Below are positions 7,463 through 38,519 of a DNA stretch of 64,000 nt, piece after piece; within the stretch, counting starts at the first letter, position 1, and each line of letters begins with the position of its first letter. Under the pieces are notes generated by a model. It saw only the letters and a list, made by a program, of their open reading frames with translations. It was not told where the DNA came from and made no database searches. The position numbers and the translations under genes are program-made. This DNA comes from Escherichia coli (GTDB lineage Bacteria > Pseudomonadota > Gammaproteobacteria > Enterobacterales > Enterobacteriaceae): assembly GCF_016903815.1 (NCBI RefSeq), contig NZ_CP069973.1; one strand, written 5' to 3'.

Positions 7463-9445
7463 TTACCATTGATAACTCACGAAAATTTTTCCATTACGAC
7501 CATCCTGTGGGATGCCTTGTGGCGACCAGTACTCTTTGTCGAAAGCGTTACCCAACACCAAAGTAGTGGTCATACCTTTGAGCGCCTGTTGTCCTTGATA
7601 ACTGACGTAGAAATCATTCACGCCATAGCCTGGTTGTTTGCTGTAACTGCTGCTGATATGTGTTGAGCGATCGGCAAACGTACCAACCCACCCAACAGAG
7701 AAGCCACTGTGAGCGATCGGAATATTCAGGGTACTGGTAACGGTATCCGGGTTAATGCTGGAGATATATTCCCCAGTATCGGTGTCTTTGCCGCGGGTAC
7801 GGTTATAGGCCACATCAAGGCTAAACAGATCAGTGGTATATTTCGTCATTACATCCCAGCCCCAGATTTTGGCGTTCGGGACGTTATACGACATAGTTGT
7901 CGCCGCCGCGAAATCGACGGTCGTGGAGATGTAATCCTTCGCTTTGGTATCAAAGTAGCTGGCTTTAAATTCCAGGGTATCATTGGACAACATCAGGTCA
8001 TCAAAACGCAGCCCAAAACCGTACTCCTGAGTTTCGTTAGTTTCCGGACGTAAGTTCGGGTTTGGCACCCAATAGTTGGTATAGAAGCGACCAATCGAGA
8101 AGTGCTTAGAATCGTTATACATTTCGCCCATCGTCGGGGCGCGGAATGCCTGGGCATATGAGCCAAATAACATCAGCCAGTTAGTCGGATTGATAGTCAT
8201 CCCCGCACGAGATGACCATTTGTCGGCATCAACATCTTTGTAACCGTCACTGCTACCGCGATAACTGTCATAGCGGGTTCCGCCAAGCAGGGTAATCGGC
8301 AGATCGCGTAAGGTGATCTCATCCTGTAGCCAGCCGGAGCTAAAATCGATTTTTGCTTGCGGGAAGCCCGTCGTCGCGCCGCCCGGATGTTGTTCCTGAC
8401 GATAATACTCACCGCCATATGTCAGTAAGTGAGAAGCGAAACTGTCGGCAAAGAGAGTGGAACGGTTCTCCAGCCTGGCTCCTTTTGTTATCTGTTCACG
8501 ATACTCGCCGGAACTCCCCGTGTTTTGCGCATTAATACGGACTTCCGACCAGTAAATTTTTGCATCTGCATTTAACCAGTCGTTGCCCTGCGGGGCGAGT
8601 TTATAAGAAAGCTGCGCATCGCGTTGAATTGTTGAACGATCAACCATCGGGTTGCTGCTATCAGAAGCCTCAACAGTCTGCGGATTTTTTGGTTCACGCG
8701 CGTCGTTGTTGTAGTAACGCACTAAACCGCTCAGAGACTGGGCTGAATCAATTTGCCAGGTCCCTTTCGCCAGCATGTTATTAATGGACTCGTCATTCGG
8801 CGCGGTTTCACCATTGCTCTGGCGTAAATCACCCCGACCGCGACTGGACCAGGCCACAATACCATCCAGATTTTCAGTTCGCCCAAACGCGCTCGCGCCT
8901 AATCCCAGGCTATGGTCCCCCGTGCCGCCAGTACCAAAGACACGAAAACCACTGCTTTGTCCTTCCTGCAATAAATCTTTTGCATCGACCGTATCGTAGG
9001 AGATCACTCCACCCAGCGCACCACTGCCATACAGTAATGCTGAAGGTCCGCGAACAATCTCAACACGCTTGATCAGCGCCGGATCGAGAAAAGTGCCATT
9101 CAGGTGTCCGGTATCCGTTCCCTGGCGAACACCATCGACAAGAACCAGCACGCCGCGATGATCATAGCCACGCATATTTACATCCTGACCGTTGGTTCGT
9201 CCGGTACCATCAAGAGTAATTCCAGGAACATGACGCAGCAAATCAGTGGCTGAAGTAGCCGTTTGATTTTCAGGAGCGGAAGTGTCGATGACGCTGACCA
9301 TCATAGGCGCTTCGAAGGAACTACGGGCATTCCCCGTTGCCGTAACGGTCATGGTTTCAGTAGCAAAAGCAAACGTTGGCAAGGTGGCAGAAACAGCCAA
9401 AGCCAACAAACTCAAACGCAACGAGGTAAATTGCGGACGTGACAT
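7463..9445 (-). CDS. chuA: TonB-dependent outer membrane haem/haemoglobin receptor ChuA (660 aa)
   Basis: Signal peptide, TonB-box-like N-terminus (ETMTVTA), plug and beta-barrel, C-terminal aromatic residue (ends ...FVSYQW). Confidence 0.95.
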   Translation of the reverse strand: MSRPQFTSLRLSLLALAVSATLPTFAFATETMTVTATGNARSSFEAPMMVSVIDTSAPENQTATSATDLLRHVPGITLDGTGRTNGQDVNMRGYDHRGVLVLVDGVRQGTDTGHLNGTFLDPALIKRVEIVRGPSALLYGSGALGGVISYDTVDAKDLLQEGQSSGFRVFGTGGTGDHSLGLGASAFGRTENLDGIVAWSSRGRGDLRQSNGETAPNDESINNMLAKGTWQIDSAQSLSGLVRYYNNDAREPKNPQTVEASDSSNPMVDRSTIQRDAQLSYKLAPQGNDWLNADAKIYWSEVRINAQNTGSSGEYREQITKGARLENRSTLFADSFASHLLTYGGEYYRQEQHPGGATTGFPQAKIDFSSGWLQDEITLRDLPITLLGGTRYDSYRGSSDGYKDVDADKWSSRAGMTINPTNWLMLFGSYAQAFRAPTMGEMYNDSKHFSIGRFYTNYWVPNPNLRPETNETQEYGFGLRFDDLMLSNDTLEFKASYFDTKAKDYISTTVDFAAATTMSYNVPNAKIWGWDVMTKYTTDLFSLDVAYNRTRGKDTDTGEYISSINPDTVTSTLNIPIAHSGFSVGWVGTFADRSTHISSSYSKQPGYGVNDFYVSYQGQQALKGMTTTLVLGNAFDKEYWSPQGIPQDGRNGKIFVSYQW

Positions 9446-9734
9446 AGCGATTCTCCATGAGGAAAATAAAAAATGCTGGCTGCCTGGGTTAATACCGGGG
9501 TGGCTGGCGAAAAATAAATTTATTTAAAATTCAGAGCGATAATATTCGCCGGGTGAGTTTACAGGCGTTTATATCCCATGAAATTGCCTGGTATCTCGGC
9601 AAATACGCAAAAGCACGCCCTCTTTGTCAGGCAAAACGATATGCCCCATCAGGAGTGAAGAGCGCTGTGCGTTATCCCTTGCAAATGCTATGGTTTTGTT
9701 ATCCATATGGTCGTGTTTTGTTAAGCGCGAACGT

Positions 9735-19028: not shown

Positions 19029-19366
19029 TCAGGACATAAGCAACTGAAATTGATGGCTGGCATGACGAGGGATGCAGATGCTGATTTCATTACCCCCGGT
19101 GATTACTAAAGGAGAGGCGAAAACGACTTTATTCCCCTGGTATATGTATCCACCAGTAGAACCCTTCGTTGCCCGAATGCTGGCAGGAACTGTTGGCAGA
19201 ACGGCAACATTTTTTTTGTCGTTGACCTCACCATGTCGATCACTATGCCTGTATCCCACCTTACTGGCTGACAACCCCACTATGCCGCTGGTCTGTAAAT
19301 CCCTCATATCTCTCCTCGCGCGCAATTTAAAGAACCGTTATTTCTCAAGAATTTTCAGGGACTAAA

Positions 19367-24753: not shown

Positions 24754-24999
24754 GACTATCCCTTATATTTCATTACTGCGATTATTTCAATTTCAGTATA
24801 CTAATGAAATGATGCCAGACTGTTTCTTAGCGCAAAAACTGCCAGATTTGGTAGGACCAAAATTTATCCACAAAGTAGTTTTGCATAACAGTTAATTGAT
24901 AATAAGTAAATGCAGCACGAATATATTTTCGCACAGCGTATAGCTTATGTTTATAAAAAAATGGCTGATCTTATTTCCAGTAAAAGTTATATTTAACTT

Positions 25000-25104
25000 A
25001 CTGAGAGCACAAAGTTTCCCGTGCCAACAGGGAGTGTTATAACGGTTTATTAGTCTGGAGACGGCAGACTATCCTCTTCCCGGTCCCCTATGCCGGGTTT
25101 TTTT
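25000..25104 (+). ncRNA. gadY: Small RNA GadY, antisense to the gadX 3' end
   Basis: 105-nt stretch beginning actgagagcacaaagtttccc and ending in the hairpin cccgg...ccggg plus T-run, matching the GadY sequence as I recall it; lies on the opposite strand just 3' of gadX. Confidence 0.7.
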
Positions 25105-25121
25105 TATGTCTGAGTAAAACT

Positions 25122-33489: not shown

Positions 33490-34503
33490 ATGACGCAGGA
33501 AAACGAGATCAAACGTCCCACCCAGGATCTGGAGCACGAGCCGATTAAGCAGTTGGATAATAGCGAGAAAGGCGGCAAAGTTAGCCAGGCGCTGGAAACC
33601 GTCACCACCACTGCCGAAAAAGTCCAACGCCAACCGGTTATTGCGCACCTGATTCGCGCAACAGAGCGCTTTAACGATCGGCTGGGTAACCAGTTTGGTG
33701 CGGCTATCACCTATTTCTCATTTTTGTCGATGATCCCGATTTTGATGGTGTCGTTTGCCGCAGGGGGCTTTGTGCTGGCCTCCCATCCGATGTTGCTACA
33801 GGATATCTTCGACAAAATTCTGCAAAACATCAGCGATCCGACGCTAGCCGCCACGTTGAAAAACACCATCAACACCGCCGTTCAGCAGCGTACTACCGTA
33901 GGGCTTGTCGGCCTGGCGGTGGCGCTTTATTCCGGCATCAACTGGATGGGTAACCTGCGTGAAGCGATTCGCGCCCAGTCACGCGATGTCTGGGAACGCT
34001 CGCCGCAAGATCAGGAGAAGTTCTGGGTAAAATATCTGCGTGATTTTATTTCACTGATTGGTTTGTTGATTGCACTGATTGTGACGCTTTCGATCACCTC
34101 GGTTGCCGGTTCGGCGCAGCAAATGATTATTAGCGCCCTGCACCTGAACAGCATTGAGTGGCTGAAACCGACGTGGCGGTTGATTGGCCTGGCGATTTCC
34201 ATCTTCGCCAACTATCTGCTTTTCTTCTGGATCTTCTGGCGCTTGCCGCGCCACCGTCCGCGCAAAAAAGCCCTGATTCGCGGAACATTTCTGGCTGCGA
34301 TTGGTTTTGAAGTGATTAAAATCGTGATGACCTACACCCTGCCATCGCTGATGAAATCCCCCTCTGGCGCAGCATTTGGTTCCGTGCTGGGACTGATGGC
34401 ATTTTTCTACTTCTTCGCCCGTTTGACGCTGTTTTGCGCGGCGTGGATTGCCACCGCCGAATATAAAGACGACCCGCGAATGCCGGGGAAAACGCAGCGG
34501 TAA
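33490..34503 (+). CDS. yhjD: Inner membrane protein YhjD (337 aa)
   Basis: 337-aa ORF with hydrophilic N-terminus and multiple TM helices; synteny. Confidence 0.9.
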   Translation: MTQENEIKRPTQDLEHEPIKQLDNSEKGGKVSQALETVTTTAEKVQRQPVIAHLIRATERFNDRLGNQFGAAITYFSFLSMIPILMVSFAAGGFVLASHPMLLQDIFDKILQNISDPTLAATLKNTINTAVQQRTTVGLVGLAVALYSGINWMGNLREAIRAQSRDVWERSPQDQEKFWVKYLRDFISLIGLLIALIVTLSITSVAGSAQQMIISALHLNSIEWLKPTWRLIGLAISIFANYLLFFWIFWRLPRHRPRKKALIRGTFLAAIGFEVIKIVMTYTLPSLMKSPSGAAFGSVLGLMAFFYFFARLTLFCAAWIATAEYKDDPRMPGKTQR

Positions 34504-34550
34504 TTCATTGGTTTATAATGCCTGATAAACGCACGGTCGATCCCCTCGCC

Positions 34551-34588
34551 CCTTCGGGGAGAGGGTTAGGGTGAGGGGGTACAAGCCA
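34551..34588. repeat. GC-rich short interspersed repeat, copy 1 (upstream of yhjE)
   Basis: cccctcgccccttcggggagagggttagggtgaggggg; a near-identical copy occurs at 36308-36344. Confidence 0.6.
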
Positions 34589-34894
34589 GCCAGAGACCAG
34601 GCAATGACATGCACATAACCACCTGAAACTACATCTCTTCAGGAGCAAACAATTTCATTCCAACTCACAACCCCAGCATATAAATCCAGTTGGTAACTTT
34701 TATTTAACCTGAAACCAGTTTTATCCACTATTTATAAAATTATGTGAAGCATTTCATAGAAGAAAAATCACTGGCTTAAACATTATCCCCTTTTTGCCTG
34801 GCTTTTGACCATTTCCGCGATTTGTTACACATTGAAATATCACTTTTGCTGTGCGTAATATGGCTATTCGTTAGCCAAAAAATAAGAAAAGATT

Positions 34895-36217
34895 ATGCAA
34901 GCAACAGCCACAACACTCGACCACGAGCAAGAATACACGCCGATCAACTCGCGTAATAAAGTCCTTGTCGCCTCTCTCATTGGCACGGCCATTGAGTTTT
35001 TCGACTTTTACATTTACGCCACTGCGGCCGTTATTGTGTTTCCGCATATCTTCTTCCCGCAGGGCGATCCTACGGCAGCAACGCTCCAGTCGCTCGCCAC
35101 CTTCGCCATCGCCTTCGTCGCGCGCCCTATTGGCTCTGCCGTCTTTGGTCATTTTGGCGATCGCGTTGGGCGTAAAGCGACGCTGGTCGCCTCGTTGCTA
35201 ACGATGGGGATTTCGACCGTGGTGATTGGTCTGCTGCCGGGCTATGCCACGATTGGTATTTTCGCCCCGCTGCTGCTGGCGCTGGCTCGATTTGGTCAGG
35301 GTCTGGGCTTAGGCGGTGAATGGGGCGGCGCGGCGCTGCTGGCGACTGAAAACGCCCCACCGCGCAAACGTGCACTGTATGGCTCCTTCCCACAGCTGGG
35401 CGCACCGATTGGCTTCTTCTTTGCCAACGGCACTTTCTTGCTGCTTTCCTGGCTACTGACCGACGAGCAGTTTATGAGCTGGGGCTGGCGGGTGCCATTT
35501 ATCTTCTCGGCGGTACTGGTCATTATCGGCCTGTATGTTCGCGTGTCGCTGCATGAGTCGCCGGTGTTTGAGAAAGTCGCTAAAGCGAAAAAACAGGTGA
35601 AGATCCCGCTGGGTACGCTGCTGACCAAACATGTTCGCGTAACCGTACTGGGTACGTTCATTATGCTGGCAACCTATACGCTGTTTTACATCATGACGGT
35701 CTACTCTATGACCTTCAGTACCGCCGCCGCGCCAGTTGGGCTTGGCCTGCCGCGTAACGAAGTGTTGTGGATGCTGATGATGGCAGTTATTGGTTTTGGC
35801 GTGATGGTACCTGTCGCCGGATTACTGGCTGATGCCTTTGGTCGCCGTAAAAGCATGGTAATCATCACCACGCTGATCATCCTGTTCGCGCTGTTCGCCT
35901 TTAACCCGCTACTCGGTTCTGGCAACCCGATTCTGGTTTTTGCCTTCCTGCTGCTGGGGTTAAGTCTGATGGGACTGACCTTCGGGCCGATGGGCGCGCT
36001 GTTACCAGAGCTGTTCCCGACAGAAGTGCGTTACACCGGAGCATCGTTCTCTTACAACGTAGCGTCGATTCTCGGGGCTTCCGTTGCGCCGTATATCGCA
36101 GCCTGGTTGCAGACTAACTACGGGTTAGGTGCGGTGGGGTTATATCTGGCGGCGATGGCTGGCTTGACGTTAATCGCCCTGCTGCTGACCCATGAGACAC
36201 GACATCAGTCGTTGTAA
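34895..36217 (+). CDS. yhjE: MFS transporter YhjE (440 aa)
   Basis: 12-TM MFS-type protein (metabolite:H+ symporter-like), 440 aa. Confidence 0.9.
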   Translation: MQATATTLDHEQEYTPINSRNKVLVASLIGTAIEFFDFYIYATAAVIVFPHIFFPQGDPTAATLQSLATFAIAFVARPIGSAVFGHFGDRVGRKATLVASLLTMGISTVVIGLLPGYATIGIFAPLLLALARFGQGLGLGGEWGGAALLATENAPPRKRALYGSFPQLGAPIGFFFANGTFLLLSWLLTDEQFMSWGWRVPFIFSAVLVIIGLYVRVSLHESPVFEKVAKAKKQVKIPLGTLLTKHVRVTVLGTFIMLATYTLFYIMTVYSMTFSTAAAPVGLGLPRNEVLWMLMMAVIGFGVMVPVAGLLADAFGRRKSMVIITTLIILFALFAFNPLLGSGNPILVFAFLLLGLSLMGLTFGPMGALLPELFPTEVRYTGASFSYNVASILGASVAPYIAAWLQTNYGLGAVGLYLAAMAGLTLIALLLTHETRHQSL

Positions 36218-36307
36218 GTATCGTGCGGGCTGCCACCCTCACCCCGGCCCTCCCCCCAGAAAGTGAACGGAAAAGCGGTACTCGTTGTTTCAACACGCAC
36301 AAAACAG

Positions 36308-36344
36308 TCCCCTCGCCCCTTTGGGGAGAGGGTTAGGGTGAGGG
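36308..36344. repeat. GC-rich short interspersed repeat, copy 2 (downstream of yhjE)
   Basis: cccctcgcccctttggggagagggttagggtgagggg, same orientation as copy 1; a partial inverted copy (ccctcaccccggccctcccccc) lies about 50 bp upstream at roughly 36235-36260. Confidence 0.6.
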
Positions 36345-36389
36345 GAACACGCTGCTCCCGAACTCACCAGCAAACACAATCCAACCTCA

Positions 36390-38450
36390 TCACTTCTTCA
36401 TCTGCGACAAAATCGTCCGGCACTGATTAGCCTCCCCTTCGGAAGGTGAGATCAGCGCCAGTAACGCCGCCGCTGGCGTAACCAGCGTTGCCAGTGCCGC
36501 CGCAACGGCTCCTCGGGCAATCAACGGCCCGGCTTTCACCCCAGCCTGCGGATTTTTAAATGTCCCACGCACATACAGCGGCGAACGCAGCGTGATAATC
36601 CGAATTCCTTTACTCTCCGGATCAATAGTCAAATCCAGCTGTTCCGAAGCAAAACTTGCCGTGCCGGTAACGTTAATCAACGCGTTCTCAGTATCGAAAG
36701 CAAAAATCTGCGGGCGCGCCACGCCGTTGGCAATATCCAGATTCGCCGCCGCACAGTTCACCCGCACCTCATCGTCACCAAATATCGCACCGACAATGTA
36801 GTTACCGACATTCAGCCCGACAATCTCCATCAGGTTGCGGCTCACCAGCCCGTCATTCATCAACAGTTTCAGGTTGCCGTTACTGTTGCCTAAAAGCGCC
36901 GCCACCGAGTTACCGCTACCGCGTAGTTCCGCGTCACCGTTCATTTCCCCCAGCGTCTTCTGCATCAGTTCCACATCGGGCATCAGTTCTTTCAGTTTCA
37001 GCCGACGAGCCTGAATATCTGCCCGCCCTTGCATCGGTTTTTTATCACCTTCCAGATGAATATTCGCCGCAATGCTGCCGCCTGCCATGCCAAATTTCAG
37101 CGGTTGCAGGCGCAGGTCAGCATTTTTGAGGATGATATGAGTAGAAAGATCGCTAATCGGCAGGCTACTGCCATGCTCAATGCGCCGCCCTTTGAAGCGA
37201 ACATCGGCATCCATGACGTCCCATTTATCGGTTTCGAAGCGGTCATAAGGCAGCACTTTACCCGCAGGCTGAACGCTTTTTTCGCCCTTCTTCTGTTCAG
37301 ACCGTTTCGACTTTTCAGCTCCTTTCCCGGAATCAACGCCAATCAACGGTCCCAAGTCCGCCAGCCGCAATTGCCGCGACTCGACATCACCTTCCAGTTT
37401 TGGCCGTGGCTTGCCGGTGGTATAGACCAGAGAACCGTGGATATCGCTATCGCCAATGCGCCCATTAAAGCCGCGATAATCAAAGACCGACGATTTTTCA
37501 GTGTCGATTTTCGCTACCAGCCGACCATCCGTTTCAAACGGCGGGGTATCGGGCAGCAGAACGCCCGTCAGTTCATAGAGATCACCCAGCGAATCGCCAG
37601 AAAATTTAAGCCGTAAATCGACACCACCCATCTTCATTGGGTCATTCACAACGCCATCAAAAGCAACACGGGTGTTACCAGAGCGGAAATCAGCCTGTAC
37701 CGGAAACGGCGTCCCTTCGCCACGCAGCGCCAGCATACCGCCTATTTTTCCCGTACCAGTGAGCGGTTCACCGTTATAACGTCCCTGCGCCTTCAGGCCA
37801 AAAACGTAATCGCCCACCTTTTCTTTATCCGCTTTACCTTTCGATCCAGTAACTTCGCTGAACGGCAGCGGCTTGCCTAACGGATCGACAAAAATTTCCA
37901 GATCCGCTTTGCTTACTTTGTCATCAATGGCGATCCGCCCTTGATCGAAAAGAATATTATCCAGCCGAAACGACCATGCCGACGGCTTTGCATTCGCGTC
38001 TTTGTTGTCATCGCTGGCGAGATTAAATGTCCAGTTGTTGTTCTTTTCTGAGAGGCGAATCAGGCGTGCGTCGGGCTTTTCCAGTTTGATCCACGGTAGC
38101 CAGACCGTTTTGGTCAGCAGCGCCAACGGTGCCAGCGTTGCCTCTACGCGTGGCAAATGCACCATTGTGACTTCGGGAATATCCGGTGGATTGCCGAGAA
38201 TGATGTCTTCTGCATGCACATGAGGCCACGGCACCCAGCTGCGCCAGCCAGTTTCTTGCTTTTGCCGCTCCCACACCACGCCCAGATCGCCACGGATAGC
38301 GAACGGACGATTCAACTCCGCAGAGACTTTCTGGTTGATGGTCGGTTTGAGTCGATTCCAGTCAAAAGTTGCAATCAAAATGATCGCCACGACAATCAAC
38401 AACAAGAAAGCCCCTGAAATCGCAGCGGTTATTTTGCCTGCCTTGCTCAT
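36390..38450 (-). CDS. yhjG: AsmA-family protein YhjG (about 686 aa)
   Basis: N-terminal membrane anchor followed by a large periplasmic AsmA-like domain. The ORF-track start at 38465 is 5 codons further upstream. Confidence 0.85.
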   Translation of the reverse strand: MSKAGKITAAISGAFLLLIVVAIILIATFDWNRLKPTINQKVSAELNRPFAIRGDLGVVWERQKQETGWRSWVPWPHVHAEDIILGNPPDIPEVTMVHLPRVEATLAPLALLTKTVWLPWIKLEKPDARLIRLSEKNNNWTFNLASDDNKDANAKPSAWSFRLDNILFDQGRIAIDDKVSKADLEIFVDPLGKPLPFSEVTGSKGKADKEKVGDYVFGLKAQGRYNGEPLTGTGKIGGMLALRGEGTPFPVQADFRSGNTRVAFDGVVNDPMKMGGVDLRLKFSGDSLGDLYELTGVLLPDTPPFETDGRLVAKIDTEKSSVFDYRGFNGRIGDSDIHGSLVYTTGKPRPKLEGDVESRQLRLADLGPLIGVDSGKGAEKSKRSEQKKGEKSVQPAGKVLPYDRFETDKWDVMDADVRFKGRRIEHGSSLPISDLSTHIILKNADLRLQPLKFGMAGGSIAANIHLEGDKKPMQGRADIQARRLKLKELMPDVELMQKTLGEMNGDAELRGSGNSVAALLGNSNGNLKLLMNDGLVSRNLMEIVGLNVGNYIVGAIFGDDEVRVNCAAANLDIANGVARPQIFAFDTENALINVTGTASFASEQLDLTIDPESKGIRIITLRSPLYVRGTFKNPQAGVKAGPLIARGAVAAALATLVTPAAALLALISPSEGEANQCRTILSQMKK

Positions 38451-38519
38451 CGTTCGCTTCCTCATATTCTTCCTGTGCCAGTCCTAAAGATAGTCCAGCC
38501 AGGCGGAAAATGAGGCAGC

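Follow-up and report, generated by a model that had tools for sequence, protein, structure and literature searches.

The two 37-bp repeats that flank yhjE in this Escherichia coli DNA are, to near certainty, ordinary copies of BoxC, a family that is already known under four names (BoxC, PIT, TMECO and HPG1). We consider it likely that these copies belong to a dispersed, structure-prone repeat that gives rise to small local insertions and deletions and for which no host function has been demonstrated. Below we describe the copies and their assignment, the alleles of the two intergenic regions in which they lie, and the roles that might be proposed for them.

BoxC copies on either side of yhjE

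We searched the window (the whole 64-kb stretch of DNA that was analysed) with the 37-mer CCCCTCGCCCCTTYGGGGAGAGGGTTAGGGTGAGGGG, tolerating up to three mismatches, a search for which the expectation from shuffled sequence was 0.00 matches. There were two exact matches, both on the plus strand, at 34542-34578 (copy 1) and 36309-36345 (copy 2). A repeat search of the window reported the pair as 38 nt long with 97% identity, spaced 1767 nt, and the two 37-nt copies agree at 36 of 37 positions. These matches bear out the initial annotation in its claim that a GC-rich 37-bp repeat flanks yhjE in direct orientation. It placed copy 2 within 1 nt of its actual position, but its interval for copy 1 (34551-34588) was about 9-10 nt too far to the right. 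A third, partial copy is inverted (36236-36258), is 83% complementary to 36322-36344, and ends 50 nt before copy 2, as expected for the inverted partial copy that had been noticed about 50 bp ahead of the second repeat. Beyond these two full copies and one partial copy, no further copies were found in the 64-kb window.

Both repeat sites fall between annotated genes. Copy 1 begins 38 nt past the stop codon of the upstream neighbour yhjD (33490-34503, plus strand), and copy 2 lies in the convergent intergenic region between yhjE and its downstream neighbour yhjG (36390-38465, minus strand). The flanked gene itself, yhjE (34895-36217, plus strand), is included for context only; it is an open reading frame for an MFS transporter in the RefSeq annotation of E. 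coli strain 7/2, which is 100% identical to the window across the yhjD-yhjG stretch.

The family was named BoxC in the 1990s, then 'potential intrastrand triplex' (PIT) by Hoyne and Maher, and then TMECO by Holder et al. 2015 (PMC4666352); earlier work on the family includes Bergler 1992 and Bachellier 1996, as cited, and Hoyne and Maher 2000 and 2002. The TMECO consensus is 5'-CCCTCNCCC-N3-6-GGGNGAGGG-N3-GGGNGAGGG[G/T/C/-]-3' (PMC4666352), and a regular expression for this consensus matched the plus strand at 34543-34577 and 36310-36344. The core opens with a pyrimidine block of 9-10 nt, which a short loop separates from a complementary purine block; a 3-nt loop then leads to a second purine block. 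The earlier guess of a small interspersed palindromic family, perhaps boxC-like, was well aimed, in that the copies fit the published BoxC consensus and are partly palindromic.

TMECO copies are divided into type A, with TTA as the second loop, and type B, with a CCG-like second loop, and the commonest form, 'A mm', has a single G mismatch within the pyrimidine block (PMC4666352). Both full copies in the window are type A mm (CCCTCGCCCC ... TTA), with a first loop of TTC in copy 1 and TTT in copy 2. Copy 2 has the same 36-nt core as TMECO numbers 7, 11 and 15 of MG1655 (Table 1, PMC4666352), and the G-to-C control oligonucleotide used in that study is this core with four G-to-C changes. The partial copy, on the minus strand at 36236-36256, satisfies the consensus in its two purine blocks only (GGGGGAGGG-CCG-GGGTGAGGG). 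Its pyrimidine block and first loop are missing, and its CCG loop is that of type B.

Kaplan et al. 2016 (PMC5100583) arrived at the purine halves independently and named them HPG1 and HPG2, as G-quadruplex motifs; this is another structural reading of identical DNA. HPG1 (GGGAGAGGGTTAGGGTGAGGG; dGGGAGAGGGTTAGGGTGAGGG) occurs exactly at 34557-34577 and 36324-36344, that is, as the purine halves of the two type A copies, and the truncated copy is one base away from HPG2 (GGGGGAGGGCCGGGGTGAGGG vs GGGAGAGGGCCGGGGTGAGGG).

Similarity between copies continues outside the core. An extended unit around copy 1 spans 34516-34590 on the plus strand, with a 5' flank that ends in GATAAACGCACGGTCGATC and the 3' flank GTACAAGCCAGCC. 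These flanks are less conserved between copies than the core is. Elsewhere on the chromosome there are loci with about 92% identity to 34516-34578. When 10 copies were aligned, the flanks that they shared were approximately RCGCAC-N5-6-GTCC 5' of the core and ACAGGCCAGC 3' of it, and in E. coli copies the weakly shared sequence extends for about 12-25 nt 5' of the core and about 10 nt 3' of it. The repeat unit is probably somewhat longer than the 37-nt core, consistent with the BoxC length of 56 bp that, together with a figure of 32 copies, is quoted from the literature in a 2008 survey naming BoxC as a known E. coli family (PMC2267715).

We found no essential difference between the published TMECO elements (PMC4666352) and the copies in the window. 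They have in common the consensus, the A mm architecture, the intergenic site, multicopy dispersal, the inverted pairing of type A with type B copies, and the decay of paired copies to a simple hairpin.

Two other kinds of element resemble BoxC. Like BoxC, REP elements (REP/BIME, or PU) are short repeated palindromes, rich in GC, that lie between genes and follow stop codons, but they are a different sequence family. There was no match in the window to the REP consensus (of the GCCGGATG...CATCCGGC or GCCTGATG... type), and membership in the REP family was rejected for the copies at yhjE. For REP elements, a mobilizing enzyme (RAYT) is known and a role in stabilizing mRNA is documented; to our knowledge, neither has been documented for BoxC. 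MITEs are likewise small, multicopy, intergenic and structured. This assignment was also rejected, as there were no terminal inverted repeats, and no target-site duplication or empty site in the comparisons of alleles.

Distribution of BoxC and alleles of the yhjD-yhjE-yhjG locus

The motif is not confined to the two sites in the window. A genome-wide count, which the initial annotation had proposed, put the BoxC 37-mer at 1-32 places per genome (median 18) in 5425 of 5426 complete E. coli genomes, in line with the 1 to 29 copies per strain that have been published. Among the BoxC matches listed (40 records), there was no annotated feature beneath any. MG1655 has 23 TMECO copies, and most copies stay at the same locus across strains (PMC4666352). 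Several of the BoxC copies that we found adjoin REP elements (loci L011, L095, L103, L105 and L107).

The exact 36-nt core was also found in Enterobacteriaceae (including Enterobacter), Pseudomonas, Stutzerimonas, Devosia, Azospirillum and several metagenome-assembled genomes, some of which are nominally assigned to non-proteobacterial groups (Anaerolineae, Chloroflexota and Ca. Kuenenia). Across these distant taxa the flanks of the core differ by lineage. In an Anaerolineae metagenome-assembled genome, three units form a perfect tandem array.

We compared alleles of the locus using nine loci, on which the allele definitions rest. Between alleles, whole blocks are replaced, from one stop codon to the next. 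In the yhjD-yhjE region, about 115 nt, beginning within the final codons of yhjD, consist of a BoxC block, as in the window and in S1-JOR-02-A (L004; its core has a point mutation), or else of a pair of REP elements. The yhjE-yhjG gap is more varied. In the intact allele (AHS8C65RI, L003) it is 233 nt and contains a head-to-head pair of a type B and a type A copy; in the window it is 172 nt; in BS-04 (L005) it is a decayed version with further degraded copies; in K-12 and others it holds three REP elements; and in NU14 there is a 40-nt remnant.

The junction of the upstream BoxC allele was found in 600 of the 5426 genomes, the intact downstream pair in 1494, and the downstream allele of the window in 132; 100 records among these genomes had at least 99% identity to the window over the full 2.3 kb. 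Both copies are present in the direct-repeat configuration in approximately 100-130 genomes (roughly 2%). Given these allele counts, the direct-repeat configuration is a minority haplotype. Most E. coli strains have REP elements, not BoxC, at both sites. We prefer to regard the copies that flank yhjE as alleles of two adjacent intergenic regions, each independent of the other, that happen to be on one haplotype, and not as a functional unit.

Strain K-12 illustrates the REP alleles. By alignment, MG1655 has REP elements in both of the intergenic regions where the window has BoxC, so that exactly these two positions are held by REP in K-12 as they are in most E. coli. There is no copy near yhjE in the MG1655 TMECO list (Table 1, PMC4666352), and we found no mention of yhjD, yhjE or yhjG in the text and supplements of Holder et al. 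2015. The absence of this locus from the published K-12 list of 23 copies, and of its genes from that paper, is due solely to the fact that REP, and not BoxC, occupies the K-12 site.

The intact allele accounts for the partial copy. In AHS8C65RI there is a complete type B copy (CCCTCTCCCTTTCAGGGAGAGGGCTGGGGTGAGGG, minus strand) at the same place as the partial copy of the window, and the type A copy is on the plus strand. A global alignment of the two alleles has a single clean gap of 61 nt, bordered by the direct repeat (C)AGCCCTC. As this alignment shows, the partial copy is the remnant of a type B copy after a 61-nt deletion between direct repeats of 7-8 nt (microhomology), with the deletion scar at 36247-36252. 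What the window lacks is the pyrimidine block of the type B copy, together with its first loop and a portion of the spacer. The arm that is left is complementary to both purine blocks of the type A copy, and with them it would form a long imperfect hairpin (36236-36345) with approximately 23 pairs and a loop of 63 nt. In AHS8C65RI the pair is separated by an 80-nt spacer. Inverted pairs of a type A and a type B copy are present at five MG1655 loci (PMC4666352); four of the five are tail-to-tail with short spacers, and one (17+18) is head-to-head like the pair at yhjE (Table 1 of that paper). The decay of paired copies to a hairpin has been called the 'palindrome effect' (PMC4666352), and the truncated pair in the window has the same outcome. 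The microhomology deletion, which leaves a hairpin-forming arm, and the altered copies in BS-04 and S1-JOR-02-A make up a signature of instability at this locus.

The locus has counterparts outside E. coli. The placement of yhjE between yhjD and yhjG is shared by Enterobacter cloacae and a Pluralibacter metagenome-assembled genome. In E. cloacae there is a type B-like copy directly after the yhjE stop codon, at the same position as in E. coli, which speaks for its having long persisted there. In Pluralibacter, what follows the yhjD stop codon is a plain 11-bp palindrome. A stem-loop is thus present just past the yhjD stop codon in every lineage examined, whether BoxC, REP or the Pluralibacter palindrome.

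Structure of BoxC and its possible roles

We folded the copies as RNA with ViennaRNA, which considers Watson-Crick and wobble pairs only. The paired region downstream of yhjE folds strongly, at -60.6 kcal/mol (z -2.8) on the plus strand and -73.7 kcal/mol (z -5.0) on the minus strand. The hairpin of a solo copy (-8.9 kcal/mol; z -1.3 to -1.9) is unexceptional for its GC-rich composition. The initial annotation had suggested RNA folding as a check on the palindromic element. Because the energy of a solo copy is not unusual, folding energy alone gives no support for a function. Searches of the region and of the whole window against Rfam gave no match at the repeats at gathering thresholds. A match to mir-3099 across the long hairpin was rejected as a sub-threshold chance match (22 bits against a gathering threshold of 95; E 0.51).

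Published experiments indicate what the DNA can do. Oligonucleotides of type A and type B form a stable intramolecular triplex in vitro, as determined by circular dichroism and NMR (PMC4666352). The triplex was not seen by DMS footprinting in vivo, and oligonucleotides remain duplex when they are double-stranded (PMC4666352). BoxC loci vary in sequence more than control intergenic sites do, and the genes next to TMECO copies have no pattern of functional class, distance or orientation, nor is there strand bias (PMC4666352).

The mechanism that we propose, in which BoxC has no host function and strand folding leads to slippage and local insertions and deletions, seems to us about evenly balanced between right and wrong. 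As a single strand, BoxC could adopt a hairpin, a purine-motif triplex within the strand, or a G-quadruplex, and this folding would transiently hinder replication, causing slippage and repair errors. Such errors could produce small deletions, degenerate copies, and replacements of whole blocks in the intergenic regions that carry BoxC. We infer, then, that the local indels, decayed copies and block replacements at BoxC sites arise because strand folding impedes replication. Because the triplex was not detected in vivo and double-stranded oligonucleotides stay duplex, the step from structure to instability is likewise one that we infer.

It is unlikely, in our estimation, that the BoxC hairpin serves in the 3' untranslated regions of yhjD and yhjE to shield the mRNA from 3' exonucleases or to aid formation of the 3' end, in the manner of REP. 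The placement of the copies would suit such a role, with copy 1 only 38 nt beyond the yhjD stop codon and the downstream pair filling the convergent gap between yhjE and yhjG, as would the presence of REP (in other strains) or the 11-bp palindrome (in Pluralibacter) at the same positions. The constant stem-loop after yhjD would also fit a role at the level of the transcript, and the strong folding of the paired region as RNA is in its favour. However, a scan for promoters and terminators found nothing at either repeat, and there is no T/U tract after either copy; the hairpin is followed by TTAGGG and not by a T tract, contrary to what defines a Rho-independent terminator. Promoter and terminator activity was absent in the work of Hoyne and Maher 2002, as far as it is summarized in PMC4666352, and the family has neither a strand or orientation bias nor a fixed distance from genes (PMC4666352). 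RNA does not form purine-motif triplexes, and Rfam, as noted, contained no match.

We also regard as rather improbable the proposal that BoxC is a non-autonomous mobile element, moved or copied by some enzyme as RAYT moves REP, possibly with a preference for REP sites or the 3' ends of genes. The identical core in distant taxa with lineage-specific flanks, the variation from 1 to 32 copies between E. coli strains, the copies that adjoin REP elements, and the tandem array of three units in Anaerolineae all point in this direction. Against it, apart from the internal hairpin the element has no terminal inverted repeats, we saw no target-site duplication or empty-site allele, and no associated gene is known. 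The type B-like copy after yhjE is at the same position in E. coli and E. cloacae, and most copies keep their locus (PMC4666352), which points to persistence more than to frequent movement.

A third proposal is that BoxC acts as a G-quadruplex DNA switch, in which the G-tracts of the purine half compete with the hairpin and the duplex and so control nearby genes (Kaplan 2016). The purine half, GGGG-AGA-GGG-TTA-GGG-TGA-GGGG, is a canonical four-tract G-quadruplex motif, and published circular dichroism backs both hairpin and quadruplex forms (PMC5100583). NMR of the full motif, however, gave imino signals of the triplex type and not of the quadruplex type (PMC4666352). A switch that controls nearby genes is also hard to reconcile with neighbours that follow no pattern of class, distance or orientation (PMC4666352), and most E. 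coli strains do not have the element at this locus yet retain the same genes. We consider this proposal very unlikely.

The initial annotation raised the possibility that the flanking repeats recombine to delete or amplify yhjE, a possibility for natural populations that we regard as extremely remote. The copies are direct, 1767 nt apart and nearly identical, but 37 bp with one mismatch is about the minimal length for efficient RecA-dependent recombination. We searched the 5426 genomes with two synthetic queries, one for the deletion junction (the end of yhjD, one BoxC, and the yhjG side) and one for the tandem-duplication junction (the end of yhjE, BoxC, and the region upstream of yhjE). No genome (0 of 5426 for each query) had one place covering at least 80% of the query. 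The yhjD-yhjE-yhjG segment was kept, at a coverage of at least 80%, in 5420 of the 5426 genomes, and the substrate for recombination, with both copies present, exists only in the 100-130 or so genomes noted above. Recombination between distant copies is possible in principle, but most copies hold their locus across strains (PMC4666352). Because both predicted junctions are absent from all of the genomes, the idea of recombination at yhjE was rejected. We also rejected the idea that the repeats delimit yhjE as a mobile cassette; the gene order yhjD-yhjE-yhjG is found in essentially every E. coli.

Significance of the BoxC locus at yhjE

The preferred reading, in which a dispersed repeat promotes local indels and has no demonstrated host function, leaves one feature of the family to be considered. 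A 36-nt core that is identical in distant taxa, with differing flanks, is an observation that stands against the proposed mechanism. The identity of the core is unexplained by neutral decay alone and hints at selection or active spread.

Identity of the core within lineage-specific flanks, alternation with REP at sites after stop codons, and a 30-fold range in copy number are pointers toward an active module. It is nonetheless doubtful, and in our view improbable, that BoxC is an actively maintained or mobilized module rather than a passive relic. If it were, this would imply a sequence-specific enzyme or a copying mechanism, analogous to RAYT for REP.

For yhjE itself, the BoxC repeats seem to have no effect on the presence of the gene. 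The value of the locus is as a clean natural example, in which strains differ in whether BoxC or REP fills one and the same intergenic site. It also exemplifies the decay of paired copies by microhomology deletion, and the occurrence of a type B-like copy after yhjE in both E. coli and Enterobacter cloacae.

BoxC and REP elements at the yhjE locus

Both of the intergenic positions at which the window has BoxC are occupied by REP/BIME elements in most E. coli strains, K-12 included. This was the case for the yhjD-yhjE region (2377-2786 of the fetched MG1655 locus, L002, versus window 34504-34894) and for the yhjE-yhjG region (L002 4110-4290 versus window 36218-36389). On the yhjD side, the swap starts within the last yhjD codons, and the final YhjD residue therefore differs between the two: the last codon and stop are CGG TAA in the window and CCT TAA in K-12.

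We also compared the locus in other Enterobacteriaceae. In Enterobacter cloacae DSM 26481 (L042), the orthologous yhjE-yhjG intergenic region is ~500 nt. A type B-like copy lies immediately 3' of the yhjE stop codon, the position that it also has in E. coli, and an oppositely oriented type A copy lies close to the end of yhjG. In a Pluralibacter metagenome-assembled genome (L114), a plain perfect palindrome, CATTGGGGTGAAATTTCACCCCAATG, lies 3' of yhjD, and yhjE is followed by a REP element and then by a pyrimidine-purine hairpin, CCCTCTCCCACAGGGAGAGGG, that consists of the pyrimidine and purine blocks only, without the third block.

BoxC copies in other genetic contexts

The type A core of E. 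coli was found, without any change, inside longer, lineage-specific repeats at loci from Pseudomonas spp. (L016-L030, L051-L054 and L063-L070) and Enterobacter spp. (L080-L096). The Pseudomonas copies have in common a 40-nt 5' flank, TTTCAGGTCGATGTAGCTCGAAAGAACACCTCGGTCAGTC. The Enterobacter copies share the 5' flank ...GGGATCCCCACAAAATA..GGCACTAAACCATT and the 3' flank AACATACGGCTCTGGTGGTCATTCCGTTCACCTTAGGTTC.

Near-identity searches gave 7-8 plasmid places among the matches; Holder et al. (2015; PMC4666352), by contrast, reported that BoxC (TMECO) is not associated with plasmids. A 155-kb record with the label plasmid p94_0962-1 (NZ_CP074792.1) has one perfect copy (L014 1501-1538) in the interval from flgF to flgG. 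The flg operon context suggests that this copy sits in a chromosomal segment.

Proteobacteria are the only hosts named for BoxC in published reports. We found a perfect tandem array (90 nt x 2.9) in a 144-kb contig of an Anaerolineae metagenome-assembled genome (L104 3230-3493), and exact cores in further contigs whose labels are Chloroflexota, Ca. Kuenenia, Ca. Troglogloeales and rumen uncultured bacterium. The units of this array are 100% identical, each a head-to-head composite of type B-like and type A copies. Binning contamination may be the source of these occurrences.

RNA families in the window

An Rfam match to the mir-3099 precursor at 36231-36349 (22 bits versus a gathering score of 95; E 0.51) was rejected as a sub-threshold chance match, reflecting nothing more than the long BoxC hairpin there. 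Rfam gathering hits elsewhere were ES205 sRNA (19146-19217, plus strand), GadY (24997-25110, plus strand) and three tandem rdlD antitoxin RNA genes (59844-60876, spaced by ~484 nt), which are an ldr/rdl toxin-antitoxin repeat cluster. A further gathering hit, the shuA/chuA 5' UTR thermoregulator (9443-9474, minus strand), is a chuA leader and thus implies presence of the haem-uptake locus in this strain.
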